A stretch of DNA of 64,000 nt from an uncultured Coxiellaceae bacterium (GCA_964559315.1 CAZLGL010000010.1:7624-71623); one strand, 5' to 3'. Counted from the stretch's first letter, positions 1-55,599 are shown. Notes: a model not told the origin generated them from the sequence alone. Translations and numbers: made by a program.

Positions 1-1056
1 ACAGCATGCCAAAAAGGCAAAGATGAAAACGAAAAACCCCTTAATAGCGTTAAAATAAGTGTTCAATCTCAACAAATCGCAGGAATCCAAACGCGGATTC
101 TTGAGCTAAAAAGTGTGTCAAAAATAATTACAGCACCAGGTGAAGTGATTCCCAATGCTGATTTGTCGAGTACTGTAACTCCTCGTGTAAGTGCTCAAGT
201 TGTTAAGCGTTTAGTACAAGTAGGGCAAGTAATTAAAATAGGGCAGCCATTGGTAGTATTATCAAGTGTTGATATGGCTAAAGCACAGGGCGACGCATTA
301 ATGGCGGCCCAAGAATGGGAGCGTCTTAAACAATTAGGCAAAGAAGCAGTTTCTGCTAAAAGATACAATGAAGCAGAAATTAATTTTCAACATGTGAGTG
401 CTAAATTAATTGCGTATGGTATGACTTCTGATCAAGTTGATGCATTACTCAATTCCAAAGACTCTAAAAAAGCGACCGGCGAATTTGAGCTGCTTGCACC
501 TCGAGACGGGACAATTTTTAAAGCAAATGCTGCTGAAGGTGAAATTGTTGAACCGGGCAAACTTTTGTTTGATATTGTTAATGGTTCTGCCGTATGGATA
601 GATGCTAAATTATCTCCAGTTCAAGCCAAGCAAGTTTTGTTAAATTCATTAGCATGGATAAACATTGAACAACAAAAATTTTCTGGCAAAGTTATTCAAG
701 TGCATCCACAGCTAGATGAGACGACGCGAACTCAAACTATACGTATTGAAGTTCCTGATGCAAATAATAATTTACGTCCAGGTCAGTTTGTAGAATGCGA
801 AATTGCTGTTGGGCAAACTCCTCCTGTTCTTGCGGTACCCACTGAAGCCATTTTACGATCTGGAGACGGTGATGCGGTTATGTATGTTGAAATAAAGCCA
901 GATTATTTCCAACAACAAGAAATTAAACAAGTCGATACTATTGGAAATCAATCAATTATTGAGGGTATTAAACCTGGATCACGCGTTGTTACGAAAGGGG
1001 CTTTTTTTGTGCATTCAGAATTAAATAAAGGTGATATTCAAAGCCACGGACATTAA
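1..1056 (+). CDS. czcB: RND efflux periplasmic adaptor (membrane fusion protein), CzcB/CusB-like; 5' end outside window
   Basis: Frame 1 is open from base 1 (..VKISVQSQQIAGIQTRILELKSVSKIITAPGEV..), so the listed GTG at 115 is internal. HlyD-type segments are present (GQPLVVLSS, LLAPRDGTIF, IRIEVPDANNNLRPGQFV). The gene ends 15 nt upstream of an RND pump gene. Confidence 0.8.
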   Translation, partial: TACQKGKDENEKPLNSVKISVQSQQIAGIQTRILELKSVSKIITAPGEVIPNADLSSTVTPRVSAQVVKRLVQVGQVIKIGQPLVVLSSVDMAKAQGDALMAAQEWERLKQLGKEAVSAKRYNEAEINFQHVSAKLIAYGMTSDQVDALLNSKDSKKATGEFELLAPRDGTIFKANAAEGEIVEPGKLLFDIVNGSAVWIDAKLSPVQAKQVLLNSLAWINIEQQKFSGKVIQVHPQLDETTRTQTIRIEVPDANNNLRPGQFVECEIAVGQTPPVLAVPTEAILRSGDGDAVMYVEIKPDYFQQQEIKQVDTIGNQSIIEGIKPGSRVVTKGAFFVHSELNKGDIQSHGH

Positions 1057-1071
1057 TGAGCAGGATGCAAG

Positions 1072-4000
1072 ATGATAAATAAATTGATTGATTTCGCGGT
1101 TAATAACCGTCTCATGGTTGTTCTTGGTCTGCTGACTATTTTGGTCGCGAGTTTTTTCATATTACCTAAACTTAATTTAGATGCTTTCCCGGATGTCACT
1201 AATGTTCAAGTAACGATCAACACTGAAGCGGCAGGTCTTGCTGCAAAAGAAGTTGAGCAATTAATTACCTATCCTGTTGAAGCAGGAATGTATTCACTCG
1301 CAGATGTTCAAGAAGTGCGTTCTATTTCTAAAACTGGATTATCCGTTGTTACCGTAGTATTCAAAGACAATGTGAATATTTATTTTGCAAGGCAACAAGT
1401 TTTTGAACGTTTACAAGCAGCGCGAGCTGAAATGCAAGAAGATGTAGGAACTCCAGAAATTGGTCCTAACACATCTGGTTTAGGACAAATTTTTCAATAT
1501 ATTTTGCAGCCAGATGATCCTCAACAGTATGATCTGATGACGCTTCGCAGTATAAATGATTGGTTGGTAAAATTAATTTTAGCTCCTGGTGAAGGCGTGA
1601 CAGAGGTTTTATCTTTCGGTGGTGAGGTACGACAATATCAAGTGCAACTTAATCCTCGTCGTTTACTTGCATATAACTTGAATGCGGAAGAGGTTGTCAA
1701 TGCAGTTAAAGCAAATAATCGAAATGCAGGTGGATGGTATGTGGATCGTGGCGCTGAACAATATGTTGTACGTGGTGAGGGTTGGGTACGCAGTGGCGAA
1801 AAAGGACTACAAGATATTGCAAATATTCCGCTTAAAAATGAGGATGGCACTGTTGTTCGCGTAAGAGATGTAGCACACGTCGCATATGGTAGTGAAATAC
1901 GTCAAGGAGCTGTGACCATTACCACGCGAGATGTAAAAGGCAAACCACAAGTACTAAATGAAGTTGTTACAGGTCTCATTTTAAAACGAATTGGTGCTAA
2001 TACCAAAGCTACTATTGATGGTATTAAAGAGCGATTACCTTTAATTCAGAAAGCTTTACCCCAAGGTGTAAAAATTACCCCAATTTACGATCAAACAGCT
2101 TTAATTGATAAAGCTGTTAATACCATGGTTAAAGCATTGCTTGAAGCATTTGGCCTCATCCTTGTTATTCTTTTTCTTTTTTTAATGAATTTACGTGCAA
2201 CTTTTTTGGTTTTACTTTCAATTCCTATTTCAATAATTGTTGCATTAATGATGATGGCCTATTGGGGAATTTCTGCTAATTTAATGTCATTGGGAGGATT
2301 AACTATCGCTATCGGAATGATGGTGGATGGCTCTGTCGTCATGATGGAAAATATTTTTAAACATTTAATTCATCCTGATGCCGCACATGAAAGTTATGTT
2401 CAAAAATTTGTAGCACCAGGTGATCCTGATCCACATGCCATTGGTGAAAATCATGTGGGTGGAATCCCCCTTAGAATTCAAGAAGCCGCACGAGAAGTCG
2501 CACGACCAGTTTTTTTCGCCGTATTAATTATCATGGTTGTCTTTGGGCCTTTGTTTAGTCTACAAGGTGTCGAAGGTAAGCTTTTTCACCCTATGGCTCA
2601 AAGCATTATGTTGGCTATGTCTATGTCACTCATAGCCGCCTTAATCATCGTTCCTGCACTTGCTACCTATCTTTTCAAAAATGGATTAAAGCATCGAGAA
2701 AGCTATATATTTTCTCCTATTAAACTGTTTTATGAGCGTTCACTCGACGCAGCTTTAAAAATACCCAAGAAAATCACGATGATAGCGATAGTGCTATTGC
2801 TTACTGCATTAATTATTGCACCCTTTCTAGGAACAGAGTTTGTCCCTGAATTGGAAGAAGGCACATTGAATATTCGTGTAACATTAGCTTCTTCTGCAAG
2901 TTTAGACACAGCGATTGCAGTATCTAAAACGCTCGAACAACAGTTAATGACATTTCCTGAAATAATTTCTGCGTCGAGTCGCGTGGGCCGTCCTGAATTG
3001 GGAGGAGATCCGGAACCTGTATCTAATATTGAAATAATAGCTAACTTGAAACCTGTTTCTAAATGGAAAACTGCAAATAACCGTCAACAACTTCAGGCTT
3101 TAATTGAGAAAAAATTATCGACTTATCCAGGACTACTCTTTTCGTTCTCACAACCGATTGCAAGTCGAGTTGATGAATTACTGTCAGGTGTAAAAGCACC
3201 TTTAGCGGTAAAATTATTTGGTCCTGATTTAAGTGTATTGGAGACTCAAGGTAAAGCCATTGAAAACATAGTAAAAAATACAAAAGGAATGCGATCGGTT
3301 GCAATGGAACCTATTACGGGAGAAGCACAGCTAGTCATTACTCCCAATCGTGAAGCAGTGATGCGCTACGGTATTTCGGTTGCACAAGTCATGGCTCTAG
3401 TATCAAACTCTATCGGGGGTGAAAAAGCAGGACAAGTTATTAGTGGAAATGAGCGTTATGACATCTACGTACGTCTTGCTAAACCGTATCGTGACAATTT
3501 GCAGGCAATTGAAGATTTAATTTTAAAAGCACCCAATGGAGCCTGGGTAAGATTAGGCGATGTTGCCAGCGTTAAGTTGGAATCTGGTCCTCCCCAAATT
3601 CGACGCGATAATATTCAACGACGGATTGTGATTCAAGCCAATATTGAAGGACGTGATATGGGTGGTGCCGTTAAGGAAATTAGACAAAAAATTAATTCTC
3701 AGCTAAAGCTTCCAAGTGGTTACACGGTGACGTACGGAGGCCAATTTGAAAATCAACAACGTGCCCAAGCACGATTAATGATTGTCGTGCCATTGTCGTT
3801 GGCACTTATTTTTTTATTACTCTATTTTGCCTTTAATTCAGTTCCTCAAGCATTATTGATTATGCTGAATGTTCCGCTTGCCTTGATTGGCGGGGTTTTT
3901 GCCTTGTTTATTTCGGGTCAATATTTATCAGTGCCGAGCTCAATTGGATTCATTGCTTTGTTTGGTATTGCGGTTTTGAATGGTATTGTTTTAGTCAATG

Positions 4001-4272
4001 CGATTAATCAAAAAATTGAAGGGGGGATTCCGTGGCAACGCGCAGTGTTTGAAGGTTCTGTTTCGAGATTAAGACCCGTATTAATGACCGCACTTATTGC
4101 AGCGCTGGGCTTAATCCCGATGTTGTTAGCTAGGGGTGTAGGATCAGAAATTCAACGACCGTTAGCAACCGTTGTAATTGGAGGCTTGCTATCGTCTACA
4201 CTTCTTACTTTATTTGTATTACCAACACTTTTCGCTTTCTTTTCAAAAGACAAAATAAATGGAAGTAAGTAA
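1072..4272 (+). CDS. czcA: Heavy-metal efflux RND inner-membrane pump (HME family, CzcA-like)
   Basis: 1066-aa ORF. N-terminus is MINKLIDFAVNNRLMVV..LDAFPDVTNVQV; C-terminus is RPLATVVIGGLLSSTLLTLFVLPTLF. Two large periplasmic loops and multiple TM blocks fit the RND layout. Confidence 0.9.
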   Translation: MINKLIDFAVNNRLMVVLGLLTILVASFFILPKLNLDAFPDVTNVQVTINTEAAGLAAKEVEQLITYPVEAGMYSLADVQEVRSISKTGLSVVTVVFKDNVNIYFARQQVFERLQAARAEMQEDVGTPEIGPNTSGLGQIFQYILQPDDPQQYDLMTLRSINDWLVKLILAPGEGVTEVLSFGGEVRQYQVQLNPRRLLAYNLNAEEVVNAVKANNRNAGGWYVDRGAEQYVVRGEGWVRSGEKGLQDIANIPLKNEDGTVVRVRDVAHVAYGSEIRQGAVTITTRDVKGKPQVLNEVVTGLILKRIGANTKATIDGIKERLPLIQKALPQGVKITPIYDQTALIDKAVNTMVKALLEAFGLILVILFLFLMNLRATFLVLLSIPISIIVALMMMAYWGISANLMSLGGLTIAIGMMVDGSVVMMENIFKHLIHPDAAHESYVQKFVAPGDPDPHAIGENHVGGIPLRIQEAAREVARPVFFAVLIIMVVFGPLFSLQGVEGKLFHPMAQSIMLAMSMSLIAALIIVPALATYLFKNGLKHRESYIFSPIKLFYERSLDAALKIPKKITMIAIVLLLTALIIAPFLGTEFVPELEEGTLNIRVTLASSASLDTAIAVSKTLEQQLMTFPEIISASSRVGRPELGGDPEPVSNIEIIANLKPVSKWKTANNRQQLQALIEKKLSTYPGLLFSFSQPIASRVDELLSGVKAPLAVKLFGPDLSVLETQGKAIENIVKNTKGMRSVAMEPITGEAQLVITPNREAVMRYGISVAQVMALVSNSIGGEKAGQVISGNERYDIYVRLAKPYRDNLQAIEDLILKAPNGAWVRLGDVASVKLESGPPQIRRDNIQRRIVIQANIEGRDMGGAVKEIRQKINSQLKLPSGYTVTYGGQFENQQRAQARLMIVVPLSLALIFLLLYFAFNSVPQALLIMLNVPLALIGGVFALFISGQYLSVPSSIGFIALFGIAVLNGIVLVNAINQKIEGGIPWQRAVFEGSVSRLRPVLMTALIAALGLIPMLLARGVGSEIQRPLATVVIGGLLSSTLLTLFVLPTLFAFFSKDKINGSK

Positions 4273-4302
4273 GATTTTTTTAATTGAAATGAAAAGGACG
4301 TC

Positions 4303-5217
4303 ATGAGTATTGAACGTAATCTTTCGCACTCAAATTTTAAACTAAAAAAAGAAAGCTCTCTTTTATTCGCGGTGATATTAACGCTTACTTTTCTTATCGT
4401 AGAAGTTGCAGGCGGGTTGATTACTGGCAGTCTTGCTTTAATCTCCGATGCGGCGCACATGTTAACCGACGTTACTGCGCTAGCTATTGCTTTTTTTGCT
4501 ATAAAAATTGCTCAACGTCCAGCAGATTCACTCAGAACATTCGGCTATTACAGATTTGAAATTTTAGCTGCTGCATTTAATACGATACTTTTATTTTTGG
4601 TGGCAATTTATATTTTATATGAAGCCTATCAACGGTTAAATTACCCACCAGAAATACACTCTATGGGAATGTTAATTATTGCTACAATCGGACTAGGTGT
4701 AAATTTGGCATCAATGCGTTTGTTAACTGCAAGTAACGATAAAAGTCTCAACATGAGGGGTGCTTATCTTGAGGTGTGGAGTGATATGGTGGGATCCTTA
4801 AGTGTCATCATCGGGGCTTTAATTATCCGCTTTACCGGATGGGCATGGGTTGATTCCATTATTGCTGTGTTAATCGGTTTATGGATTTTACCTCGCACAT
4901 GGATTTTGCTTAAGGAAAGTATAAATGTGTTACTAGAAGGAGTTCCGGAAAATATAGATTTAAAAAAATTGAAGCAAGCCCTTTTTACTGTTAATGGGGT
5001 ATTAGATGTTCATGAGCTTCATGTGTGGGCTATTACAACTGACAGAATCAGTTTAACTGCCCACGTCATAATTGACTCAAAACGTGATTGCGAAACTATT
5101 TTAATTAAACTGCGTAGACTTTTATCACAACAATTCAATATTGCACACACCACATTCCAACATGAAAAAACACATTGTTCTAAAGAAGGTGAAAAGTGTG
5201 ATTTTTTACACTCTTAA
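4303..5217 (+). CDS. czcD: Cation diffusion facilitator (CzcD/ZitB-like Zn/Co/Cd efflux)
   Basis: Shows GSLALISDAAHMLTDV and FGYYRFEILAAAFN TM motifs and a C-terminal cytoplasmic domain with HELHVWAIT. Lies directly downstream of czcA. Confidence 0.85.
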   Translation: MSIERNLSHSNFKLKKESSLLFAVILTLTFLIVEVAGGLITGSLALISDAAHMLTDVTALAIAFFAIKIAQRPADSLRTFGYYRFEILAAAFNTILLFLVAIYILYEAYQRLNYPPEIHSMGMLIIATIGLGVNLASMRLLTASNDKSLNMRGAYLEVWSDMVGSLSVIIGALIIRFTGWAWVDSIIAVLIGLWILPRTWILLKESINVLLEGVPENIDLKKLKQALFTVNGVLDVHELHVWAITTDRISLTAHVIIDSKRDCETILIKLRRLLSQQFNIAHTTFQHEKTHCSKEGEKCDFLHS

Positions 5218-5273
5218 ATTAAATTTATTTGCAGAATACAAATTTTTGTTTCTAATGATCTGGAGGAAACGCC

Positions 5274-5963
5274 ATGAAAAAAACATTTATTATCATCACT
5301 GTCGTCACACTAGCAGTTTTAGGTTTTATTGCTACGGGACACTTTTATAAAAAAGCACAGCCGCAAAGCACTATTGAAAACTCAACGACAATTGCTGTAC
5401 AAGCTGCAACGAATACCGAGGATAATTCGCTCGTACGGCCACATTCGCCTATCATTGGTCGGGCTGATGCACCCATAACAATTGTGGAGTTTCTGGATCC
5501 ATCGTGTGAAAGCTGCCGAGAGGTATTTCCCCGCGTCCATAAAATCTTGAAAACATATCCAAACGACGTCCGCCTGGTGGTACGTTATGCAGCTTTTCAC
5601 CGAGGATCTGACGTTGCAATTAGCATTTTAGAGGCCGCTAGAAAGCAAAATATGTTTGAAAATGTGCTGGCGGCTTTATTTGAAAAACAACGTTATTGGG
5701 CTACACATCCCGTGCCAAATTTAAATAGGGCTTGGGATATTGCAGAGGCTGCCGGTTTGAATATTCAGAGGGCGAAAGTAGATGCTGCAAGCCCAGAAGT
5801 CATAAAAATACTTAAGCAGGATGCAGCAGATATTAAAACTAACAATATTCGCGGTACACCTGCATTTTTCGTAAACGGCAAGCCCGTTCTTGTGCATGGC
5901 CCTACCGCATTAAGCGATATGGTAAATGGCGCTGTACAGGAAAATAAAAAAGAACGATCATAG
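5274..5963 (+). CDS. DsbA-family thiol:disulfide oxidoreductase, membrane-anchored or secreted
   Basis: N-terminal hydrophobic anchor MKKTFIIITVVTLAVLGFI. Thioredoxin-fold active site FLDPSCESCRE (CxxC). C-terminal GTPAFFVNGK is typical of the DsbA family. Confidence 0.8.
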   Translation: MKKTFIIITVVTLAVLGFIATGHFYKKAQPQSTIENSTTIAVQAATNTEDNSLVRPHSPIIGRADAPITIVEFLDPSCESCREVFPRVHKILKTYPNDVRLVVRYAAFHRGSDVAISILEAARKQNMFENVLAALFEKQRYWATHPVPNLNRAWDIAEAAGLNIQRAKVDAASPEVIKILKQDAADIKTNNIRGTPAFFVNGKPVLVHGPTALSDMVNGAVQENKKERS

Positions 5964-6110
5964 TGATCGATATTAGGACTTGTGCCAAATAACTTCATTT
6001 GACCAACCCAGTTTGTATTCGATAAACCTTTCTTATTGTTTATTATTGGGCGGTGTAACATATGCCTTTGTGAATGAAGGAAGTTTGATTTCACTGAGGT
6101 TTTTTCCAAC

Positions 6111-6260
6111 TATATATTAAGTAGCGATTCAGAAATCACGCGTCTTGTTGCAACGCCGATGATTAGTGGAATGAATAGTGATACGTTATTAACGTTAATT
6201 GTTATTCCTGCAGTTTATTTTTTGTGGAAGCAAAAATTTTTATTAAAGGGGGGAAGTTAA
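6111..6260 (+). pseudogene. 3'-terminal stump of a CusA-like RND pump gene (last ~50 codons only)
   Basis: The frame with codons starting at 6111 reads YILSSDSEITRLVATPMISGMNSDTLLTLIVIPAVYFLWKQKFLLKGGS*. This matches the extreme C-terminus of CusA-type pumps (..GSEVMSRIAAPMIGGM..LLSLFIIPAAY..W..) recalled from E. coli CusA. A stop codon at 6075 closes the frame upstream and no pump body is present. Confidence 0.6.
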
Positions 6261-6262
6261 AG

Positions 6263-6532
6263 ATGAGCGTAAAGAGACGCAGTGCAATTATTACAGCGAT
6301 TGTTGCGGGTTTAATGTCAAATGCAAGTTATGCGGATACATCTGCTATGTCTGGTGGTGCAATTCCAACGGCTGCTGTGCATTGTATGGGCATTAATAGC
6401 TGTAAAGGTATGGGGTCATGTAAAACAGCAACAAATGCTTGTAAAGGAATGAATTCCTGCAAAGGAAAAGGAATAATGAATACGACCACAGCTAAAGACT
6501 GTACCGACAAAGGTGGTACGGTTGTTCAATAG
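6263..6532 (+). CDS. Secreted 6-Cys peptide, bufferin-like (BufA2/DUF2282-superfamily-like) precursor, copy 1
   Basis: ATG at 6263 follows AAGGGGGGAAG (the GTG at 6224 in the ORF track is unlikely). Signal peptide is MSVKRRSAIITAIVAGLMSNASYA. The core is VHCMGINSCKGMGSCKTATNACKGMNSCKGKG..DCTDKGGTVVQ. It is a paralog of the ORF at 10014. Confidence 0.6.
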   Translation: MSVKRRSAIITAIVAGLMSNASYADTSAMSGGAIPTAAVHCMGINSCKGMGSCKTATNACKGMNSCKGKGIMNTTTAKDCTDKGGTVVQ

Positions 6533-6788
6533 TGTTTTGCAATTAACTACGGAACTTAAGCTAAGCCTCGTAGTTAACCTTGCCATTGGCATGTTGTAAT
6601 TTTCAGTTGAGAGGGATTCTCTTGTTTTTTCAATCTGATCTGATTTAGAAGATAAAATCTGGTTCGTAAAATTTGTGCATTACTAACATTGCTCGTTGTT
6701 TCCGCTATATCTTTTTTATGGGAACAGTATTTTATTCAACAGAAGGGACCCACCCATTAGTACCTGTGAATGTCATCAAGTGGAAGCG

Positions 6789-8939
6789 TTAACGAAGTGA
6801 AAAATTCTGTATACCATCACCAAAGTGTAACAATCTTAATCCATTAAACACCACTAATAAACTTGCACCCATATCAGCAAATACTGCCATCCATAGTGTT
6901 GCAAATCCAAATAGAGCTAAAATGAAAAATATTGCTTTAATTCCTATTGACAGGCTTATGTTTTCAATCAGTTTGCGCCGAGTGCGTCGGCTAAGTGCAA
7001 CAAAAAATGGTAGCTTAATAAGGTCATCTTCCATCAAGGCAACATCTGCTGTTTCAAGTGCAATATCCGTTCCTGCGTGACCCATAGCAAACCCAATAGA
7101 GGCTTTAGCAAGGGCGGGAGCATCATTAATTCCATCGCCTACCATACCTACTGCGCTATATTTTTTTAAAAGAATATCAATAGCAGATAATTTGTCTTGA
7201 GGGAGTAAATTGGCTCGTATATTATCAATGCCGACTATTTTTGCGATAGCCTTTGCAGTAGTGGGATTATCTCCTGTGATCATTACGGTTGTGATACCTA
7301 GTTTATGAAGCCATTCAATAGCTGCTACACTTGTTTTTCTTACGGTATCTGTCACAGCTAATATGCCAAGTACTTTTTCTTGATTACCTAATACAATTGT
7401 TGTTTTTCCTTCGAGTTCTAATTTTTTTAAAATAGATTCTATTTTGGCGATGCATACTTTTTTCTCTTCAGCAAAATGATGATTACCTAAAAAATAAGGT
7501 TGGTCATTAATATTGCCTATAATTCCTCGGCCTGGGATAGTTTCAAAGTGCTCTACTGTTAATAAATTTTCTTTTGACGATAAAATTTTCCATTTGTTTA
7601 AAACAGCTCCTGCTACGGGATGTTCGGAATGTGATTCAAGACTAGCCGCAAGATGTAATAAAGTGTTTTCTGAAATTTCTGATAATTGCATGATATCCGT
7701 GACTATTGGTTTGCCAATAGTTAATGTTCCCGTTTTATCAAAAGCAATGGCCTTAAGTTTGTTCCCTAACTCTAAATAAGTGCCACCTTTAATTAAAACA
7801 CCATGTTTTGCTCCTGCGGCTAAACCACTCACAATAGTGACAGGAGTTGAAATCACTAGCGCACAGGGACAAGCAATAACTAAAAGCACTAGCGCTTTAT
7901 AAAACCATGGGTAAAATGGCAAGCTCAATAATAGTGTTGGGAGGGTTGCTACTAATACTGCTAATAAAACCATTATAGGAGTGTAGTATTTAGCAAACTG
8001 ATCAACAAATCTTTGGGTAGGTGCGCGTTCTGACTGAGCTTGTTGTACCGCTTTGATAATTTTTGCAATGAGTGTTTCATTGATTTCTGCGGTGACTTTA
8101 AATTCAAATGATCCACGTTCGTTAATTGATCCCGCAAACACGGTGTCACCTTCTTTTTTTTCTACAGGGATGGATTCTCCTGTGATAGGTGCTTGATTGA
8201 TACTGGATTGGCCTTTGGTAACTCTGCCATCGATAGGAATACGTTCTCCTGGTTTTACCCAGATAATATTATTTAATTGAACCTCATTAACTGGTTTAAC
8301 TTGCCATCCGTCTTTTGCTGTTTTCACTGTTGCAAAATCTGGAGTGATTTCCATTAATTGCCGAATAGCATGACGAGCCTTATCTAAAGAATAGCTTTCA
8401 ATCATTTCAGCTAGCGCAAAGAGAAAGGTCACCATCGCAGCTTCTGGCCATTCACCGATAATCATTGCGCCAATGATGGCTACCGTCATTAAAAAATTCA
8501 TATTGAGAGTAAAATAGCGTACCGCTTTGATTCCCTTGATGACGGTACTGTGGCCACCGATTAAGATTGAGGATAAGGCTAAAATAATAATTAAAGGAGA
8601 ATTTTCAGCGTGGGTAAGATAAGTGGATACTTCTGCAATAATGGCAAGCGCGCCCGAAACGCCCAATATAATCCAATCACGGAAATTTACATTTGACTGA
8701 AGTAAGTCGAGACTTTTCTTGGTATAGGAACCATTTTTAATTTCGGCTTTCATTCCTATTGAAATCAATGCTTGTTGAATCGCATTTACTTCAACATCTT
8801 GGTAGGTAACTGTTAATTCTTGTTTGATAAAGTTGAAATTTAATTCTAAAATTCCTGGTAAAGAGCTTAGATGATTTTTGATTGTTTTTTCTTCTGTTGG
8901 GCAATCCATTTGCGGTATTTGGAAGATGACTGTAGCCAT
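6789..8939 (-). CDS. P1B-2-type heavy-metal ATPase (Zn/Cd/Pb, ZntA/CadA-like)
   Basis: Motifs: CPC (VIACPCALVISTP), [17 protein letters not shown], and TM8 ADMGASLLVVFNGLRLL (the DxG signature of Zn-type pumps). The N-terminal metal-binding domain has IPQMDCPTEE. The probable start is Met at 8939 (MATVIFQ); the ORF-track extension to 9029 is unsupported. Confidence 0.85.
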   Translation of the reverse strand: MATVIFQIPQMDCPTEEKTIKNHLSSLPGILELNFNFIKQELTVTYQDVEVNAIQQALISIGMKAEIKNGSYTKKSLDLLQSNVNFRDWIILGVSGALAIIAEVSTYLTHAENSPLIIILALSSILIGGHSTVIKGIKAVRYFTLNMNFLMTVAIIGAMIIGEWPEAAMVTFLFALAEMIESYSLDKARHAIRQLMEITPDFATVKTAKDGWQVKPVNEVQLNNIIWVKPGERIPIDGRVTKGQSSINQAPITGESIPVEKKEGDTVFAGSINERGSFEFKVTAEINETLIAKIIKAVQQAQSERAPTQRFVDQFAKYYTPIMVLLAVLVATLPTLLLSLPFYPWFYKALVLLVIACPCALVISTPVTIVSGLAAGAKHGVLIKGGTYLELGNKLKAIAFDKTGTLTIGKPIVTDIMQLSEISENTLLHLAASLESHSEHPVAGAVLNKWKILSSKENLLTVEHFETIPGRGIIGNINDQPYFLGNHHFAEEKKVCIAKIESILKKLELEGKTTIVLGNQEKVLGILAVTDTVRKTSVAAIEWLHKLGITTVMITGDNPTTAKAIAKIVGIDNIRANLLPQDKLSAIDILLKKYSAVGMVGDGINDAPALAKASIGFAMGHAGTDIALETADVALMEDDLIKLPFFVALSRRTRRKLIENISLSIGIKAIFFILALFGFATLWMAVFADMGASLLVVFNGLRLLHFGDGIQNFSLR

Positions 8940-9159
8940 ATCACGCCCTCTAAAGTTAGTTGCTAAGCCACAGCTTACCTTTACGATACCCTTTATTAAG
9001 TGTAATTGATGAGCGATGAGCATAGCCATTTAAATTTTAAAATGAGCAAGGAAAGATCAGGTTAGCTTGCTTTGATAGAGTGATGCTAAAAAAGCTGAAC
9101 AAAATTAACGCACCACCCTAAGTAGAGTTCATTTTTTGTTCAACGAGCCCAATTTTTAT

Positions 9160-9840
9160 TTACAGATTAGCTGTTTTGTTCCGAAACCCTATCTTACTTT
9201 CACTTGCATCTGAACGATCTGAGGAGCAAGTAGTTGTTGCGCATGAAGCGCTTTTGCAACGTTTGTCATCTTGACTGCTTTTCCAGAAATAGCTTAAAAA
9301 TGAGGAAGGTTTCTTGTGAGACTCTGCAGTTTCAGTTGTTTGTAATTGTTGGCGATTTTCTGCAGAAGCTGCTGATTGGCTAGTAACAAGAGAAGCAGTT
9401 TGTCCTATTCGAGCAGCAGTTGTTGTACATATTCCACCGCAACATCCTCCTGTCATAGTTTGAGCACCTACCTGAACCATTTGTGCAACACTCGATGAAA
9501 TAACGGATTCAGAAACAGCAGCTTTCTGGCTTAATGGTGCTGAAAAATCAGTGGCGGGAGTTATATTCGTCTGACGAAAATAGCGAATACCTGAACTAAT
9601 TGCTCGACCAGTAGCCCAGGAAAGAGAAACATTAACCACCATTCCAACAGGATGTTGACGAACTTCATTTAATAAAATTTTACCTGTTTCGATGGGATGG
9701 TAAAGTGCGTAGGCCGTATCTTTGACGGTTTGAATAGGGTGTAACAAAAGTTTTTTCCAACCTGAAAGATAAAGTGTGCATCCATATTTTACTTCGTTGC
9801 CAACATAATAAAGGTAGTCAGTGTAATTTTGCTCAAACAT
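9160..9840 (-). CDS. Hypothetical protein with Cys clusters (GGCCGGIC and CKSASCATTTC); no signal peptide
   Basis: 226-aa ORF. It has a globular N-terminal ~100 aa followed by a Ser/Thr/Ala/Gln-rich tail carrying two Cys clusters. It is co-directional with and upstream of the Zn-type ATPase, and divergent from bufferin-like copy 2. I recognise no family. Confidence 0.5.
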   Translation of the reverse strand: MFEQNYTDYLYYVGNEVKYGCTLYLSGWKKLLLHPIQTVKDTAYALYHPIETGKILLNEVRQHPVGMVVNVSLSWATGRAISSGIRYFRQTNITPATDFSAPLSQKAAVSESVISSSVAQMVQVGAQTMTGGCCGGICTTTAARIGQTASLVTSQSAASAENRQQLQTTETAESHKKPSSFLSYFWKSSQDDKRCKSASCATTTCSSDRSDASESKIGFRNKTANL

Positions 9841-10013
9841 GTCTTGCCTCCTCTCATTAAAAGGGTTTACTAAAGATTAGATAGCTCGTATTCAGTTTAA
9901 CATGCTGCTCGAGTTGGTACCTTATCTCAAAATGGAGAAAGACTTTTTATTTATACGTAATTCTGTTAATTTATTTTTGTAATATCCACTTTTACCTCAC
10001 AAGAGACCATTTT

Positions 10014-10286
10014 ATGAGCATCCAAAGAAGACGCGCCATCATCGCTGCTGTTATCGCGGGTTTATTTGCTACCGAAAGTTATGCAATCGCTACATCATCA
10101 ACTCCTGTTCCAGTACCCACTGTAAAATGTATGGGCGCACATAATTGTAAAGCTATGGGAGCTTGTAAAGCGGGCGCGAATGGTTGTGGAGGAAAAAATG
10201 CGTGCAAGGCTGTCAATCCGAAAAGCATTGTCACCAATTTGTCTGCACAAGAATGTACAGATAAAGGCGGTACCGTAGTGCAATAA
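10014..10286 (+). CDS. Secreted 6-Cys peptide, bufferin-like precursor, copy 2
   Basis: Signal peptide MSIQRRRAIIAAVIAGLFATESYA. The core is VKCMGAHNCKAMGACKAGANGCGGKNACKA..ECTDKGGTVVQ. It has the same Cys spacing and the identical CTDKGGTVVQ end as copy 1. Confidence 0.6.
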   Translation: MSIQRRRAIIAAVIAGLFATESYAIATSSTPVPVPTVKCMGAHNCKAMGACKAGANGCGGKNACKAVNPKSIVTNLSAQECTDKGGTVVQ

Positions 10287-10333
10287 TTCTTTATTTTTGC
10301 CGCTTCAGTAAATTTTCGGGATTGATTATTTTC

Positions 10334-10365
10334 TTGACTTTAACCTTGGGGTTAAGGTTTATATT
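10334..10365 (+). promoter_or_regulatory. MerR/CueR-type promoter with long spacer and dyad operator
   Basis: TTGACT (10334-10339), a 19-20 nt spacer containing the dyad TTAACCttggGGTTAA, then TATATT (10360-10365). It lies ~55 nt upstream of the lipoprotein/copAB operon. The half-sites match the operator at 16422-16437. Confidence 0.6.
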
Positions 10366-10419
10366 GAGTAAAGTATTTTTTCGTGAGGTTACCAGACATA
10401 TTTGATTAAGGATGAATTT

Positions 10420-10845
10420 ATGAAAATTGCTCTTAAAGTTAAGTTAGTGATCGGTAGTCTTTTTGTTTCAGTTCTTGCGGGGTGTGCATCAGTACCCCTA
10501 GACCCAGGTGCAGAAAAGGTTGTTTTTACGGCAATCACTGTACCTCAATCATGTAAATCATTGGGTCAAATTTCGAGCACTGATGTTAACGGCGTTACAA
10601 CCGCGTATACTTCTCACTCAAATTTACAGACAATGGAAATTAATGCTCTCAAAAATCGAGCATTGGCATTAGGCGCGAATGTTGTTGTTCTTACCGGCCA
10701 TCAAACGAAGTATGTGCCTGGATCGCGACGACAAGTTGATGACCATACATTAATAGGCAACGCTTATGTTTGTCCTGCGAGAGTTTTAAGTAAGTTACCG
10801 AATATGAATTCATCAAACATTTCGGATGCTCATGTAAGACACTGA
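10420..10845 (+). CDS. Lipoprotein (DUF4156-like)
   Basis: ATG at 10420 follows AAGGA. Lipobox is SVLAGC. The size and the C-terminal GNAYVCP pattern resemble DUF4156 lipoproteins (from memory). It is the first gene after the CueR-type promoter. Confidence 0.6.
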   Translation: MKIALKVKLVIGSLFVSVLAGCASVPLDPGAEKVVFTAITVPQSCKSLGQISSTDVNGVTTAYTSHSNLQTMEINALKNRALALGANVVVLTGHQTKYVPGSRRQVDDHTLIGNAYVCPARVLSKLPNMNSSNISDAHVRH

Positions 10846-10878
10846 TTTTTATAGGGAACTTTGCCAGAGGGAAGGGAC

Positions 10879-13350
10879 ATGCGACCAGAATGTAGAAAAG
10901 CTTTTAGTTTACTAATTAATGCTGTTATTTTGGTCGCCGGTTTCTTAAGTGCTCCAGCTGCTCTCGCGAATAATGTTGTAGTTAGATTGGATGTTGGTTA
11001 TAAAAATGTGAATTTTGCAGGGAAATCCATTCAGGCAATTGCAGCTAATAATCAAATTCCTGCGCCGACATTACATTTTAAACAAGGCGATACCGTAACT
11101 ATCAATGTATATAATCATTTGGATGTGGGTACAGCTATTCATTGGCATGGTTTGATTCTTCCGTGGCAAATGGATGGCGTTGAAGGCATTTCTCAAAAAG
11201 CTATTCCTCCAGGAGGAATGTTTTCGTATCATTTCACACTCTATCAATCGGGTACTTATTGGTATCACGCTCATGCAGGTTTTCAAGAACAGCAAGGGTT
11301 GTATGGTGCATTTATTATTGATCCATCTACGCCACATCTTAATAAATACACCAAAGATTATCCAATAGTTTTATCTGATTGGAGTAATACAAATCCGGAT
11401 AAAATATTGGCTAATCTGAAAAAAGATGGCGATTATTATTCTCCACGATTTCCAATGCAAGCATCGCTTGTGCGTTTTATTCGAGAATATTGGCATGCTT
11501 CACCTGAAGGGCGTAAACAATTAATCGAAGATTATAAAATGATGCAGAGTATGCGTATGAGTATCTATGATCTGAGTGATGTGGCTTATGACGCTTTTTT
11601 ATTAAACGGACAGACGAATAGCGCCCCATGGCAAGCATTGGTTAAAGTGGGCGATATCGTACGGTTACGTTTTATTGGTGCGGCTGGTAGTACTATTTAT
11701 CATGTAAAAATTCCGGGTACTTTAATGGAGATGGTGAGTGTTGATGGTAACAATGTAAGACCCTATATTGTTAAATCATTCACGATTGCACCAGGTGAAA
11801 CGTATGATGTATTAGTAAAAATTACTCAAAATCAACCGTATATTATTTATGCTGAATCGAAAGATGCGCTAGGTGCAGCAGAGGGCGCTTTAATCACAGA
11901 ATCTGGTCAACCGGTTGATTATGCTCATGTAAAACCTTTTTCTGAACCTGAGCCTGTTACTCGAGAAATGATGGATAACATGATGTCTGGTATGACAGAT
12001 CACAATAGTTCTAATTCAATGAGCATGGATAAAAATATGAATATGACAATGAATATGGATTCAAGCTCATCGCATGAGATGCATCATGGTATGTCTATGA
12101 ATATGGATATGCCCACGGAAGCTTCAATTATAGGAGATACAATGTCTCCGCCTAATTCTTTTCAAGCCACTACCTCAGGTACGAAATATCAAAACTTAAC
12201 TGCCGCGGTTAAAACAAATAATCCCCATAAACCAATAGCTGGAATTATTAGAATGCAATTATTTGGCTATATGGGACGTTATATTTGGTTCATCAATGGT
12301 GAGACTGAATTTAAAGCTAAGCCCATTATTATTGAACCCAATAAGCGATATCGCATTATATTTACGAATGATTCCATGATGAATCATCCCATGCACATTC
12401 ACGGGCACTGGTTTATTTTGCGTAATGGACACGGAGTTTATGATCCACTGTTGCACACTATTGAAGTAGCCCCAGGTGCTACTGCTGTAGCCGATTTTGA
12501 TTCAAATGCCAGTGGCCAATGGTTTTTCCATTGTCATCATCTCTATCATATGATGACAGGAATGGCGCGTGTATTTCAGTATTCAACGATTATTGATGTT
12601 GCAAAAGGTACGATGAAACCTGAAAAAGAAATTTCCCTTGGCACCTATGTTAATCAACCAATCGTCAGAGAAGATGAAGTTATGCCAATTGATACTTCAT
12701 TGATTCATCATCCCATGGCGCATGCTATGGGTTTATACCTTGCAAGCTTTTTAGACGTAGGCGAAGATCCTTTTGATAATGTACAAAAAGTTACATTTAA
12801 GGGTTTATACGGTAGTGACTATAACAAGCTTGAATTATTTACTAATGATGCTGAGGTCAATAAAGGGAGCATCAAAAATGCTGATATGGATATTTTTTAT
12901 TGGCATTTAATCAGTCAGTTTTGGGCAGTAAAGGGTGGCGTGAATTATGTTTATCGTCCTGCTGAACATCCTTATCTGCAACCGGGTATCGGAATCGAAG
13001 GATTGATGCCGTATTTTATAGATACAAATATTAGAACGTATTATCACGATGGAAGTGAGTCACTTGATGTTGAGTTATCACGTGATACGCAAATTACTAA
13101 TAACTTTTTTATCCGGACAGGTATTCGCAGTATTTTAGCCACCAAAACAGTGGCTGAAGATGAAATTGGCAGTGGGTTAAATCAAATGCGCTATATTCTT
13201 CGCCCGTATTATCGTGTTGCCCCTGGCGTAGATGTATTTAGTGAATTTGAAAGTGAGCATGATTATGGTGCATCAAGAAATATCGTTCAAAATGCGGGTG
13301 AATCATCCACAGAAAATACAGTAACCTTTGGTGTTTCAATTTTATTTTAA
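10879..13350 (+). CDS. Fusion protein: CopA/PcoA-type multicopper oxidase plus CopB/PcoB-type outer-membrane domain
   Basis: ATG at 10879 follows AGGGAAGGGA. MCO copper-ligand motifs are HWHG, WYHAH, HPMHIHGH and HCHHLYHMMTGM. There is a Met/His-rich insert (MMDNMMSGMTDHNSS..MHHGMSMNMDMP). The last ~230 aa match the CopB pattern (GIGIEGLMPYFIDT.., EDEIGSGLNQMRYILRPYY, terminal ..FGVSILF). No stop codon separates the two parts. Confidence 0.8.
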   Translation: MRPECRKAFSLLINAVILVAGFLSAPAALANNVVVRLDVGYKNVNFAGKSIQAIAANNQIPAPTLHFKQGDTVTINVYNHLDVGTAIHWHGLILPWQMDGVEGISQKAIPPGGMFSYHFTLYQSGTYWYHAHAGFQEQQGLYGAFIIDPSTPHLNKYTKDYPIVLSDWSNTNPDKILANLKKDGDYYSPRFPMQASLVRFIREYWHASPEGRKQLIEDYKMMQSMRMSIYDLSDVAYDAFLLNGQTNSAPWQALVKVGDIVRLRFIGAAGSTIYHVKIPGTLMEMVSVDGNNVRPYIVKSFTIAPGETYDVLVKITQNQPYIIYAESKDALGAAEGALITESGQPVDYAHVKPFSEPEPVTREMMDNMMSGMTDHNSSNSMSMDKNMNMTMNMDSSSSHEMHHGMSMNMDMPTEASIIGDTMSPPNSFQATTSGTKYQNLTAAVKTNNPHKPIAGIIRMQLFGYMGRYIWFINGETEFKAKPIIIEPNKRYRIIFTNDSMMNHPMHIHGHWFILRNGHGVYDPLLHTIEVAPGATAVADFDSNASGQWFFHCHHLYHMMTGMARVFQYSTIIDVAKGTMKPEKEISLGTYVNQPIVREDEVMPIDTSLIHHPMAHAMGLYLASFLDVGEDPFDNVQKVTFKGLYGSDYNKLELFTNDAEVNKGSIKNADMDIFYWHLISQFWAVKGGVNYVYRPAEHPYLQPGIGIEGLMPYFIDTNIRTYYHDGSESLDVELSRDTQITNNFFIRTGIRSILATKTVAEDEIGSGLNQMRYILRPYYRVAPGVDVFSEFESEHDYGASRNIVQNAGESSTENTVTFGVSILF

Positions 13351-16411: not shown

Positions 16412-16443
16412 ATTCTACATTTTAACCTTAAGGTTAAGGTCAA
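16412..16443 (-). promoter_or_regulatory. CueR-type promoter/operator for copA in the copA-cueR divergent region
   Basis: On the minus strand: TTGACC (16443-16438), a spacer holding the perfect 16-bp palindrome TTAACCTTAAGGTTAA (16422-16437), then TAGAAT (16417-16412). The 19-20 nt spacer is typical of MerR-family promoters. Confidence 0.7.
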
Positions 16444-19696: not shown

Positions 19697-21193
19697 TTAA
19701 TGAAGTACTTCGGTTTGTTCTTTGGACAAAGCTATGGGATGAACGTAATAAACTGTCGTAGGTTTACGAGTCGGAAGTTTGAGGGCTGCACTGATAAGAT
19801 TTCTATTTCTTAAAATCTGGAGTGCTTTGTTAAGGCGTTCATTTCTTCCGAGTTTTTTGTTTCGAGTTCGCTTTAATAATTCTGTTTTGCCAAATGACGA
19901 TTCGCCTCTCGACAAAATCCATTCCCAGATCCATTTGGCATCTTCCGTTGCTTCGTCCATTGCCATCAATCCGAAAGCAGCAAGTGTGTGAGGAATGAGG
20001 AGTTCTGAAACCGCAATTGCACGATTCATGGTTTGAGAATTAATTTCAGCGAGTCGTGTTCCGTGTTCGGCAACATGGAGCAGTCCTGCGATTCGAAGTG
20101 TGAACCCACAAATCTTTCCACCCCATCCCTGACAATTTCCTAATTTGCCATCGGGGCGAAGTTCAATTTCTATTTCGCGCTGAAATTGCTTCCAGGCGTT
20201 TTTTGCATCTGGGGTTAGGGTGAATATCTTTTCAGTTGAGATCTCGTCAAGGAACGCTTTAATCTTCGCGCTATAGGTTGAACGAAGTTCTTTTCTCAAG
20301 GCAGGTTTGTCGTGTGTGCGATAACCCAGTTTGCTATTAGGAAGAACATACAGAAAACGTTCGACCATTCCGTTGCCTGTGTATGCTTGTTTGGAAATTA
20401 AATTTTGAATAATGATTGGCTGAACAGCTAATACCATAGTTAAATATGGATTAAGAGAGATACTTTTATCTTTACGCCTAACACGAATTTCTCCGCCATC
20501 AATTCCCTTCAATAAAATATCTACGTTTGCTGCGCCATTACTGTAAAGCCCGCCTAATGTTTCTAATACACCGCCTTCATCAGAAAATATTGCGAGCCGT
20601 CCGTTTTGTTCGCTCAAGATTGTTGTTAGTGATTCAGGGGTAACATCGTTTACAAATAATTGTGGAGCAACGGGAATATCTTCTAACGCAGATTCTTTTG
20701 CAGTTATTTCATGAATTAATTTTTGTTGTTCATTTAAATCTTCTACCTTTGCCGCTTTTGTTCTCAAGCCTTCAATAATTTTCTCTTGAGTTTTACGTTC
20801 TGAAATATATTGCTTTATTTTGCTACGAAATGTTTTTTCCTGATCTTGTTCCCACTCGACTAAAGGTTCTTTGCAGCGAGCAAGTACAATGCTTTTATGA
20901 TTCGCCGGAGGAAGTGCAATTAACGTGTAAATATTAATGGGCTCTTCCCATCCTTCGAAAGGTGATACTTTACAGAATTTAGATGTTACAGATGAAATAA
21001 TTCCTAAGACTGTCATGACACATAAGGCTTCAGGAACTTCAACTGATTCTGCCAATGCTTTCGCAAATTCATGAAACACGCCTGGTAATAAACATGCTGG
21101 AATATCAGGCGTATCGTATTCGTTAAAAAAGATAGGATCGTCCCAAGCATCAGCATGGGTGAGTGATGGTAATTCTATTATTCCTGTTTTCAT
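19697..21193 (-). CDS. DUF3987 (YfjI-like) protein of integrative elements; putative replication/helicase-loader function
   Basis: 498-aa ORF. From memory, the pattern is that of DUF3987 proteins that travel with AlpA and P4-type integrases. A central coiled segment is flanked by ..LAIFSDEGGVLETLGG.. and ..MVERFLYVLP.. Confidence 0.55.
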   Translation of the reverse strand: MKTGIIELPSLTHADAWDDPIFFNEYDTPDIPACLLPGVFHEFAKALAESVEVPEALCVMTVLGIISSVTSKFCKVSPFEGWEEPINIYTLIALPPANHKSIVLARCKEPLVEWEQDQEKTFRSKIKQYISERKTQEKIIEGLRTKAAKVEDLNEQQKLIHEITAKESALEDIPVAPQLFVNDVTPESLTTILSEQNGRLAIFSDEGGVLETLGGLYSNGAANVDILLKGIDGGEIRVRRKDKSISLNPYLTMVLAVQPIIIQNLISKQAYTGNGMVERFLYVLPNSKLGYRTHDKPALRKELRSTYSAKIKAFLDEISTEKIFTLTPDAKNAWKQFQREIEIELRPDGKLGNCQGWGGKICGFTLRIAGLLHVAEHGTRLAEINSQTMNRAIAVSELLIPHTLAAFGLMAMDEATEDAKWIWEWILSRGESSFGKTELLKRTRNKKLGRNERLNKALQILRNRNLISAALKLPTRKPTTVYYVHPIALSKEQTEVLH

Positions 21194-21447: not shown

Positions 21448-21708
21448 TTATCGAGCTGCACGAGTACCGTGAAAACTTTGTGCTGTGCTGACAAATCGCC
21501 CGTCAGCATTCAACCAAAAGTCCAAATCCTCTTTGAAATAAAATACGCGGCCACGTTTGATGAATTTAGGGCCCACACCTTTGCTGCGCATCATGGCTAA
21601 AGTTTTTTCTTTCAAACCTAAATAATTCGCAGCATTGTGAGCATCAAGTCGCTCATCAGGAAACATATAGACCGTAGTAGATTCAACAGGGTTTTTACAT
21701 AATGTCAT
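21448..21708 (-). CDS. AlpA/excisionase-family HTH protein
   Basis: LDAHNAANYLGLKEKTLAMMRSKGVGPKFIKRGRVFYFKEDLDFWL fits the HTH_17/AlpA pattern. It is divergent from the integrase. Confidence 0.7.
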   Translation of the reverse strand: MTLCKNPVESTTVYMFPDERLDAHNAANYLGLKEKTLAMMRSKGVGPKFIKRGRVFYFKEDLDFWLNADGRFVSTAQSFHGTRAAR

Positions 21709-21970
21709 TAGTAATCTCCTTCAAATTTATGATTTAAAGCACCTATAAAATAACAACGATAAAAGCCTAGAATGAAATATTTGTAAATGCAAACGATTTC
21801 GTATCAAAAACAACGGTGTGTGTTTTATAGAGAATTTTCGAGAACTTTATAGCCCAGTGTAAATACACTTGAGTCATTATTAATCAGTATTAACGGGTAT
21901 TATTCTATGTAAAATGATGTATTTAAATATTATGATAGGATTGTCTAAATTATTTAAAGGAGACGACCCA

Positions 21971-23113
21971 ATGATTAAATTCACGAAGCTAACCAGAGTG
22001 AACATTCGTAAACTCCAGTGCACAAAGAAAATCAGTGAGCACGGTATTGTTTTTAAACGGTTAAAAAATGGTGACGGGAAATATCTCATCAATATTATGG
22101 TTGATGGACAGCGAATCCATCGGCTAGTTGGGAAAGAATCCGAAGGGGTAGGGCGCCAAGAAGCTGAGCAGCTTATTTCAAAATTGCGTGAAGATGCTAG
22201 GCAAAATAGATTCAACCTTCCAAAAGGCCGAAAAATTATTTTAGGTTTTCGAGATGCTGCCGAAAAATATATTCAAAAATTAAGAGAGAGCGACGGCAAA
22301 GATATCGCAAGAAAAGAAGTTCGTTTTAAATTATATCTCTGTCCATTTTTTGAAAATAAACTACTTTCACAAATTAGTAGTTTTGATATTGAGCGTTACA
22401 AAAAAGCACGAGCCGAAACAAAAACTAAACATTCAACAATTAATCGAGAATTAGCTGGACTTTCGCATTTTTTGAATAAAGCAGTAGAGTGGAAATGGTT
22501 AGAACATAAACCGTGTTTAATTAAAAAATTCAAAGAAGATAACGGTCGAATAGTTTATTTAACCGTTGAACAAACAAGCGATATTCTTGAATCAGCGAAA
22601 AAAGATGAGTGCACATATATTTATCCATTTTTCATGATTGGTTTAGCGACAAGCATGCGGCGCATGGAAATTCTTTCTATCAAAATTGAACATATAGATT
22701 TTGATAAACGAATTATTTTTATTCCAGTAGCTAAAGCCGGAAAAAGAGAACAGCCAATGACAGAAAATTTGGCGAACTTTTTGAAAAATTATCTTAAAAG
22801 CACTTCTTCCGAACAAACTTGGTTATTTCCTGCAAAGCGTTCTTCTACTGGTCATGCAGTGAGTATTGAAAAAGCATTTAGACGAGTTGTTGTGCGAGCA
22901 GGTTTAGATCCGAAAGAAGTTGTGCGACATACATTACGACATACTGCAATTACGCATTTAGTTCAGGCGGGCGTTGATCTTCCTACGGTTCAAAGAATTT
23001 CAGGCCATAAAACATTACAAATGGTGGTTCGATATGCTCACCAAAATGGAGCGCATATCCAAGCGGCGATGGATAAGTTGGAGAAGAGGTATCAGTTTGA
23101 AGATGCGGCGTAG
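21971..23113 (+). CDS. int: Tyrosine recombinase / phage-type integrase
   Basis: ATG at 21971 follows AAAGGAG. An N-terminal SAM-like core-binding region is present. Catalytic motifs are MRRMEILS (Arg), HTLRHTAITHLVQAG (HxxR) and GHKTLQMVVRYAH (Tyr). Confidence 0.9.
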   Translation: MIKFTKLTRVNIRKLQCTKKISEHGIVFKRLKNGDGKYLINIMVDGQRIHRLVGKESEGVGRQEAEQLISKLREDARQNRFNLPKGRKIILGFRDAAEKYIQKLRESDGKDIARKEVRFKLYLCPFFENKLLSQISSFDIERYKKARAETKTKHSTINRELAGLSHFLNKAVEWKWLEHKPCLIKKFKEDNGRIVYLTVEQTSDILESAKKDECTYIYPFFMIGLATSMRRMEILSIKIEHIDFDKRIIFIPVAKAGKREQPMTENLANFLKNYLKSTSSEQTWLFPAKRSSTGHAVSIEKAFRRVVVRAGLDPKEVVRHTLRHTAITHLVQAGVDLPTVQRISGHKTLQMVVRYAHQNGAHIQAAMDKLEKRYQFEDAA

Positions 23114-24442: not shown

Positions 24443-24519
24443 TGGTGGGCCCACCAGGACTCGAACCTGGGACCAAGAGATTATGAGTCTCCTGCTCTAA
24501 CCAACTGAGCTATAGGCCC
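24443..24519 (-). tRNA. ileX: tRNA with CAU anticodon, most like tRNA-Ile2 (lysidine type); elongator tRNA-Met not excluded
   Basis: The reverse complement is GGGCCTATAGCTCAGTTGGTTAGAGCAGGAGACTCATAATCTCTTGGTCCCAGGTTCGAGTCCTGGTGGGCCCACCA. It is 77 nt, folds as a cloverleaf and encodes CCA. The D-arm through variable loop (GAGCAGGnGACTCATAATCnCTTGGTC) matches E. coli ileX as I recall it. ileX also neighbours rpoD in E. coli. Confidence 0.85.
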
Positions 24520-30499: not shown

Positions 30500-30528
30500 T
30501 TTATATAACTAAGAAGGTAACTATACTA

Positions 30529-31761: not shown

Positions 31762-31926
31762 TAAGCTGAGCTTACTTCAATAAGTCCATGATGCCGGCAA
31801 CGGTGCAAAGAGCCTGCCATAACCTACTGGTTTGATTGCATAAGCACGCATACAACCTTAGAATGGCTATTCCTTATATATATAAATAAGAAGAAAAGAC
31901 TAAAATTCGTATAATTGGGGGTGGGT

Positions 31927-55508: not shown

Positions 55509-55599
55509 CCCGAATTTATACCTGATTTAAAAATATTATGCCAGCTAGATTCGCATGGTATGATCGACCCAATTTTTTAATAGGGTGGGAGAGAATAAA

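Follow-up and report, generated by a model that had tools for sequence, protein, structure and literature searches.

The gene at positions 6263–6532 of the window, by which we mean the whole 64-kb stretch of DNA analysed here, almost certainly encodes a real member of the BufA2 family of bufferins, although none of the genes that mature such peptides lies beside it. It lies in a duplicated segment derived from the end of a cusCBA-bufA2 operon, comprising the last part of an RND gene, bufA2 and a hairpin, and it sits on an integrative metal-resistance island together with a second, divergent precursor gene. The fate of its product is best explained by maturation in trans, in which an MNIO/DUF2063 pair encoded elsewhere in the genome would modify the precursor, and we put the probability of this reading at about 0.6. 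Bufferins, RiPPs that buffer copper in the periplasm, were recognised as a class only recently and are very widespread.

The gene, hereafter copy 1, is laid out as follows:

6263–6532, + strand: bufA2-type bufferin precursor gene, copy 1; intact ORF of 89 aa with a match to NF050166
6263–6334, + strand: signal peptide of copy 1, residues 1–24
6335–6529, + strand: 65-aa core of copy 1

The ORF runs from an ATG at 6263 to a stop codon at 6530–6532 and has 89 codons, with GGGGGGAAG, a purine-rich, Shine-Dalgarno-like stretch, 7–8 nt 5' of the ATG. A GTG at 6224 is an alternative in-frame start; the orthologue on a contig of a sister MAG (GCA_033763845.1; L007) is called at the ATG. The first-pass annotation had described an 89-aa product with a signal peptide and a six-Cys core, and both parts of that description were borne out. 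Read directly, the N terminus has the tripartite build of a Sec-type signal peptide, with K4, R5 and R6 in the n-region, an 11-residue hydrophobic core (AIITAIVAGLM) and S-Y-A at −3/−1; it aligns with the signal peptides of relatives, and no lipobox was found in it on reading the sequence. Sec cleavage is predicted after A24, which would leave a mature peptide of 65 aa without Trp. The six Cys, at residues 41, 47, 53, 60, 66 and 80, are invariant across 33 relatives. An AlphaFold2 model built on the 33-sequence alignment is of low confidence (pLDDT 58, pTM 0.35), and a profile search of PDB sequences with the copy 1 family returned no relative.

Assignment to the family is carried by the NCBIfam profile NF050166 (Cu_RiPP_BufA2, 'BufA2 family periplasmic bufferin-type metallophore'), an equivalog model with a curated cutoff of 60 bits. 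Copy 1 scores 80.1 bits against it (E = 1e-22, profile positions 4–78 of 79), which upholds the earlier reading as a BufA2-type (BUF_6/12Cys) bufferin-like peptide, and this is its sole NCBIfam match. The DUF2282 family, offered as another option in that reading, drops out: the PF10048 profile was run and gave no match at E <= 10, as was the case for every other Pfam family, and the peptide has six Cys rather than four. Among 5.8 billion proteins searched, 110 homologues were found at E <= 1e-3, mostly unannotated and 80–100 aa long. Besides the six Cys, G43, G62, N64 and K67 are invariant in the 33-sequence alignment, and copy 1 agrees with the consensus wherever a core position is conserved in at least 88% of 85 further family members. 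With the founder of the BufA2 family, CCNA_03001 of Caulobacter vibrioides, it shares a Sec signal peptide, a core of ~60–65 aa, the six invariant Cys in the arrangement V-H-C-x-G-x-N-x-C-K-G ... N-x-C-K-G ... C-T-D-K-G-G, and a copper-related genomic setting common to the founder family. However, the founder gene belongs to a bufA2-bufB2-bufC2 operon, whereas copy 1 has no MNIO or DUF2063 gene in 64 kb. Buf1 peptides (DUF2282, PF10048) form part of the same RiPP class, since they are exported by Sec and their Cys are converted to thiooxazoles by an MNIO with a DUF2063 partner, but they differ from copy 1 in having four Cys and another profile.

The absence of DUF692, DUF2063 and DoxX from the entire 64 kb, which had been claimed from the sequence at first sight, was confirmed by three kinds of search. 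Pfam scans of ~60 ORFs spanning the window detected no PF05114 (MNIO), PF09836 (DUF2063/HvfC_N) or PF07681 (DoxX); tblastn of the window with the MNIO and DUF2063 proteins of a canonical bufA2 operon (L004) gave a best E of 0.77; and HMMs made from 66 MNIO and 63 DUF2063 sequences of related loci had no match at E <= 1e-3 among six-frame window ORFs of at least 40 aa. Copy 1 thus has 6.2 kb of MNIO-free sequence upstream of it and 57 kb downstream. The 17.6-kb L007 contig, whose synteny carries ~9 kb further left than the window, likewise yielded no MNIO or DUF2063, and by that synteny the further ~9 kb upstream of the window are probably also without an MNIO.

The surroundings of copy 1 are those of a mobile element. 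An integrative metal-resistance island takes up the left ~24 kb of the window, and the mapping of its integrase and efflux genes agrees with the earlier statement that two precursor-like genes sit among Cu/Zn efflux genes on a mobile island:

115–5217, + strand: membrane-fusion protein gene (cut by the window start) with downstream RND and CDF genes, from Pfam and synteny with L007
1072–4272, + strand: CusA/CzcA-type RND pump
4303–5217, + strand: CDF (cation-diffusion facilitator) transporter
5274–5963, + strand: DsbA-like periplasmic thioredoxin (CxxC), the last same-strand gene before copy 1
6789–9029, − strand: heavy-metal P-type ATPase with an HMA domain, convergent with copy 1
9160–9840, − strand: 226-aa protein, divergent from copy 2
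10014–10286, + strand: second, divergent BufA2-like gene (copy 2), 90 aa, six Cys, below the NF050166 cutoff
19697–21193: DUF3987, just upstream of the integrase
21448–21708: HTH_17, just upstream of the integrase
21914–23113, + strand: tyrosine integrase, at the right end of the island
24443–24519, − strand: tRNA-Met, 3' end facing the island

After copy 2 the order is DUF4156, a multicopper oxidase/CopB ORF, a cupredoxin gene (− strand), a second P-type ATPase gene (− strand), MerR, ArsM-ArsC-ArsR, DUF3987, HTH_17, the integrase, Fic and tRNA-Met. Because its 3' end faces the island, tRNA-Met is the probable integration site; no second att copy was found in the window, where an Rfam scan returned tRNA only. 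The GC content is 0.365–0.393 left of ~24 kb, that is, on the island. Elsewhere in the window it is mostly 0.40–0.44, apart from a few blocks of 2 kb at 0.37–0.39. Past tRNA-Met the core chromosome follows, with rpoD, fmt/def, surE, nlpD, rpoS, fab genes, mla and lpt. A megablast of positions 4000–12000 against the PLSDB plasmids gave short, unrelated matches only, so the segment is not a known plasmid.

Several other ORFs of the window were recorded in passing. The 226-aa protein beside copy 2 has no Pfam or NCBIfam match; it has a 'GGCCGGIC' motif and a Ser/Thr-rich tail, and it adjoins copy 2 in the sister MAG too. An 829-aa ORF at 10861–13350 (+ strand) combines three multicopper-oxidase domains (residues 45–574) with a CopB outer-membrane domain (643–829) and is either a CopA-CopB fusion or an assembly or frameshift artefact; the exact ORF was not found in the protein collection. 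Outside the island, an ORF of 718 aa at 35296–37452 (+ strand), with a NUDIX (idi-like) gene behind it, unites HMG-CoA reductase and GHMP-kinase domains and has the look of a fusion enzyme of the mevalonate pathway. Pfam has no match at E <= 1e-4 for five large ORFs (631, 410, 665, 1781 and 470 aa; 28604–33912 on the + strand, 46835–52180 on the − strand and 55585–56997 on the + strand), which may encode lineage-specific secreted or effector-like proteins.

The origin of copy 1 can be read from comparison with the sister MAG. On L007, an intact OEP-CusB-CusA operon includes a bufA2 gene (P0111) that starts 2 nt after the stop codon of the cusA-like gene, and P0111 is 92% identical to copy 1. 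About 0.5 kb of the window (~6127–6620) has ~90% DNA identity to this cusA-end/bufA2 region and holds, on either side of copy 1, two further pieces of it:

6127–6260, + strand: remnant of a cusA-like RND gene, its last ~44 codons (GSEITRLVATPMISGMNSDTLLTLIVIPAVYFLWKQKFLLKGGS, then the stop codon), with ~90% DNA identity to the 3' end of the L007 RND gene
6543–6577, + strand: hairpin just past the copy 1 stop codon, with 16-nt arms and a 3-nt loop, found as an inverted repeat and in the L007 alignment

The remnant, which corresponds to an RND gene of 1038 aa on L007, stops 2 nt short of the bufA2 ATG, and the ribosome-binding site lies inside it. The hairpin is common to both sequences, being a perfect palindrome on L007 and degraded in the window, and the duplicated block ends ~40 nt beyond it, near 6620. 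It is the dead RND fragment, together with the ~90% identity to L007, that identifies copy 1 as a duplicated operon tail. The ~0.5-kb segment would have been copied into the gap between the DsbA-like gene and the P-type ATPase gene. A near-identical third variant, P0113, is recorded on a contig as long as the source contig of the window (80,580 bp); it probably represents the operon-linked original, which would lie just upstream of the window. This history has two consequences. First, the adjacency of copy 1 to the DsbA-like gene is accidental; the idea of that gene as a dedicated bufA2 partner was rejected, since the same gene on L007 is followed by a CDF fragment and not by bufA2. Second, copy 1 has lost its native promoter and operon.

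The second precursor gene has drifted further from the family. Copy 2 scores 47.2 bits against NF050166 (cutoff 60; E = 1.9e-12), departs from the family at six positions that are at least 88% conserved (N7H, G11A, A18G, K23G, G30A and G32S in core numbering) and has a 3-aa insert, 'VNP', after Cys V; by its sequence it is classed as a divergent paralogue. It holds the same place in the sister MAG.

A precursor gene without its maturation genes had at first been taken as a possible undescribed variant of the system, and this claim could not be kept. Stand-alone precursors make up "sizeable proportions" of Buf2 and count among the major genetic organisations of Buf1 and Buf2, and both modification in trans and no modification have been proposed for them (PMC12452194). 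Copy 1 is an instance of this known arrangement, and current NCBI annotation would name the gene automatically. What is new, but modest, is how copy 1 arose by duplication, the coupling of bufA2 to cusA in the sister MAG, the three island copies and the divergence of copy 2. Like copy 1, the published stand-alone genes, for example those of Legionella pneumophila subsp. fraseri, are unlinked to an MNIO, and several bufferin-type genes occur per genome; copy 1 differs from them in its efflux-operon and island setting and in its duplicated cusA-tail-bufA2 module. For stand-alone genes PMC12452194 reports no conserved neighbours.

The frequency of the arrangement was assessed in 80 loci from GTDB species representatives and 80 metagenome loci, classed with custom HMMs, a gene being called stand-alone when at least 3 kb of sequence on either side of it was available and contained no MNIO. 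The GTDB loci divided into 58 with an MNIO, 15 stand-alone, two with DUF2063 only and five unclassed, and the metagenome loci (82 bufA2 genes) into 60 with an MNIO, seven stand-alone and 15 unclassed. In this survey ~20% of the family's loci are stand-alone. MNIO-linked genes in the GTDB set are tightly packed (median gap 95 bp, 53 of 58 within 300 bp), and for 12 of the 15 stand-alone loci the flanks reach at least 7.5 kb in both directions. Three Legionella loci (L025, L077 and L082) have the canonical arrangement. In a neighbour-joining tree, stand-alone genes are scattered among clustered ones, while the window copies, L007 and P0004 fall in a clade that is stand-alone throughout. The closest relatives of copy 1 (P0002, P0003, P0004 and P0111) are all stand-alone, and neither P0002 (67% identity to copy 1) nor P0003 (63%) is followed by an MNIO. 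Per-position conservation in 24 stand-alone cores, counted without the window and L007, is indistinguishable from that in 61 MNIO-linked cores (N7, 1.00 vs 0.97; K10, N26 and K29, each 1.00 vs 1.00).

Proximity to metal-efflux genes was also considered as a general trait of stand-alone bufA2 genes and was rejected: with the window and L007 set aside, homologues of the island metal genes are absent from 20 of 22 stand-alone or short-flank loci, and the remaining two have a single RND or MFP match. Embedding among efflux genes thus seems to be peculiar to this lineage. In six metagenome loci (L096, L097, L098, L102, L105 and L109) bufA2 has an RND efflux gene within a few kb and an MNIO-DUF2063 pair ~1.9 kb away, and in the four examined more closely (L096, L098, L102 and L105) it lies 1.8–1.9 kb upstream of that pair with unrelated ORFs between; loci of this type show both a loosened MNIO linkage and a bufferin-efflux association in another lineage. 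At L004 (9196–11863), as at L005 and L006, a canonical bufA2-MNIO-DUF2063 operon stands directly after merR-merT, in keeping with a published proposal that mercury is handled by certain bufferins. At L090 (1069–1908, − strand), the gene for P0002, the closest metagenomic relative, is convergent with a gene for a DsbD-like thiol:disulfide interchange protein, and this gene and the DsbA-like gene of the island hint at a link to periplasmic thiol redox enzymes.

A model for the maturation of such a precursor comes from C. vibrioides Buf2. There, Cys I and Cys VI escape modification and are probably paired in a disulfide, and the four Cys between them are each 4.03 Da lighter, as 5-thiooxazoles (PMC11626156). 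By extension, the 89-aa precursor of copy 1 would be made in the cytoplasm, its Cys 47, 53, 60 and 66 would be converted to 5-thiooxazoles by a BufB-type MNIO and a BufC-type DUF2063 partner encoded elsewhere, and the peptide would be exported by Sec and cleaved after Ala24. By analogy with Buf2, a disulfide may then join Cys41 to Cys80, and the 65-aa product may chelate periplasmic copper, complementing the efflux pumps, P-type ATPases and multicopper oxidase of the island. The bufferin signal peptide is dispensable for modification, the core peptide being involved in recognition (PMC11626156), and tandem precursors suggest that one MNIO can serve several substrates (PMC12452194).

Maturation in trans is favoured mainly by two observations, the strict conservation of the residues that flank the Cys and the finding that, of 864 complete genomes with Buf_6-12Cys, none is without an MNIO and only one is without a DUF2063-type partner (PMC12452194, Table 3). 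It is also supported by the fact that stand-alone genes are common and as conserved as MNIO-linked substrates, and by a MAG that holds both a clustered (L036) and a stand-alone (L080) locus. The proposed partnership with efflux draws support from the 2-nt spacing of cusA and bufA2 on L007 and from RND-adjacent bufA2 genes in other lineages. Other observations count against this explanation. There is no MNIO or DUF2063 in the window or on L007, and as the nearest relatives are all stand-alone, long-term independence from a linked MNIO is possible. In addition, the host RpoD shares 92% identity with its counterpart in a single unclassified Gammaproteobacteria MAG and no more than 65% with any from a named taxon; because this points to a deep, uncultured gammaproteobacterial lineage, the statistic from 864 complete genomes may not transfer to it. 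A Legionella origin, which 40% GC and the mevalonate genes had brought to mind, was rejected on these RpoD identities. Finally, copy 1 has lost its native operon and has no convincing promoter or MerR/CueR box, which weighs on the same side.

The alternative that fares best, although we consider it unlikely, is that the peptide is exported unmodified and acts, independently of any MNIO, as a disulfide-bonded or thiol periplasmic protein, for example a metal chaperone of CusF type or a buffer that serves the RND pump; the DsbA-like protein of the island might oxidise it. CusF is the periplasmic Cu/Ag chaperone of the E. coli cusCFBA operon. The L007 operon lends this reading some appeal, in that bufA2 is its last gene, no cusF is present, and bufA2 occupies a place where a CusF-like protein would sit. 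The analogy is one of position only: in L007 a small exported protein is co-encoded, and probably translationally coupled, with a CusCBA-type pump, but CusF has Met, His and Trp ligands and an OB fold and is not a RiPP, and copy 1, which has no Pfam match, shows no kinship to it in sequence or family. Absence of a maturase from 64 kb and a nearest clade made up entirely of stand-alone genes are what this reading would lead one to expect, and the published account leaves 'not modified' possible for such precursors (PMC12452194). The two thiol redox genes, DsbA-like on the island and DsbD-like convergent with P0002, also accord with it, but the DsbA adjacency is not conserved. It is harder to reconcile with the N-x-C-K-G-type motif at every Cys, which is as strict as in MNIO-linked precursors and difficult to explain by disulfides alone. 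Moreover, bufferin metal binding requires the thiooxazole heterocycles (PMC11626156), and the published survey contains no Buf2-carrying genome from which an MNIO is missing (PMC12452194). A broader form of the same idea, in which the whole lineage-specific stand-alone clade (copy 1, P0111/P0113 and P0002–P0004) would have freed itself from MNIO chemistry and would supply an unmodified, Cys-rich periplasmic partner of a CusCBA-type pump, a CusF substitute translationally coupled to cusA and carried by a mobile metal island as precursor-only cargo, seems to us distinctly unlikely.

Whether copy 1 is in use at all bears on each of these readings. Promoter-like matches number 13 versus 13.8 expected by chance, no convincing promoter lies upstream of copy 1, and the interval 5963–6263 yielded no terminator on the + strand. 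With its native promoter lost and no terminator upstream, copy 1 probably depends on read-through from the same-strand RND-CDF-dsbA genes. Control by CueR or MerR was considered and is unsupported, since the two exact dyads (ACCTT-N6-AAGGT) lie elsewhere on the island, at 10343–10358 and at 16425–16440, the latter in the gap that separates the second P-type ATPase gene from MerR, and none was found upstream of either bufA2 copy. The first of them belongs to a promoter downstream of copy 2:

10336–10364, + strand: MerR/CueR-type promoter, TTGACT-19 nt-TTATAT with dyad ACCTT-N6-AAGGT, ahead of DUF4156-copA/B

The coding sequence itself is under purifying selection. Copy 1 and the L007 copy differ by 10 synonymous and seven non-synonymous changes (pN/pS 0.20), a comparison that is partly paralogous, so that some of the constraint may predate the duplication; outside the signal peptide there are three non-synonymous and eight synonymous changes, and no conserved position is hit. 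Neighbouring genes have pN/pS of 0.07–0.20 in the same comparison, and copy 2, likewise under purifying selection, differs from its L007 counterpart by 17 synonymous and eight non-synonymous changes (pN/pS 0.14). All five of the 90%-cluster variants keep the Cys-rich core.

These data leave the last alternative very unlikely, namely that the duplication left copy 1 behind as a functionally redundant or silent gene, now decaying, while the operon-linked copy upstream, copy 2 or both do the work: the flanking dead RND fragment, the lack of a recognisable promoter or metal-regulator box of its own, the degraded hairpin and the existence of the near-identical P0113 would all suit it, but the ORF is intact, the ribosome-binding site is kept, every family-critical residue is retained, pN/pS is ~0.2 even if part of that constraint is older, and the same-strand genes upstream could supply transcription.

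Maturation in trans by a distant MNIO/DUF2063 pair hence stays the preferred reading, and the locus offers a clean test case for the modification of MNIO-distant precursors, as no maturase lies within tens of kb. With P0113 counted as the third, a single mobile metal island would hold up to three precursor genes, near-consensus or divergent, of which one would be coupled to a Cu/Ag RND pump. If the precursors are modified in trans, such islands would boost copper tolerance by means of substrate genes alone, using the chromosomal enzymes of their host; if they are exported unmodified instead, a RiPP precursor scaffold would have been re-used as an ordinary metal-binding protein.
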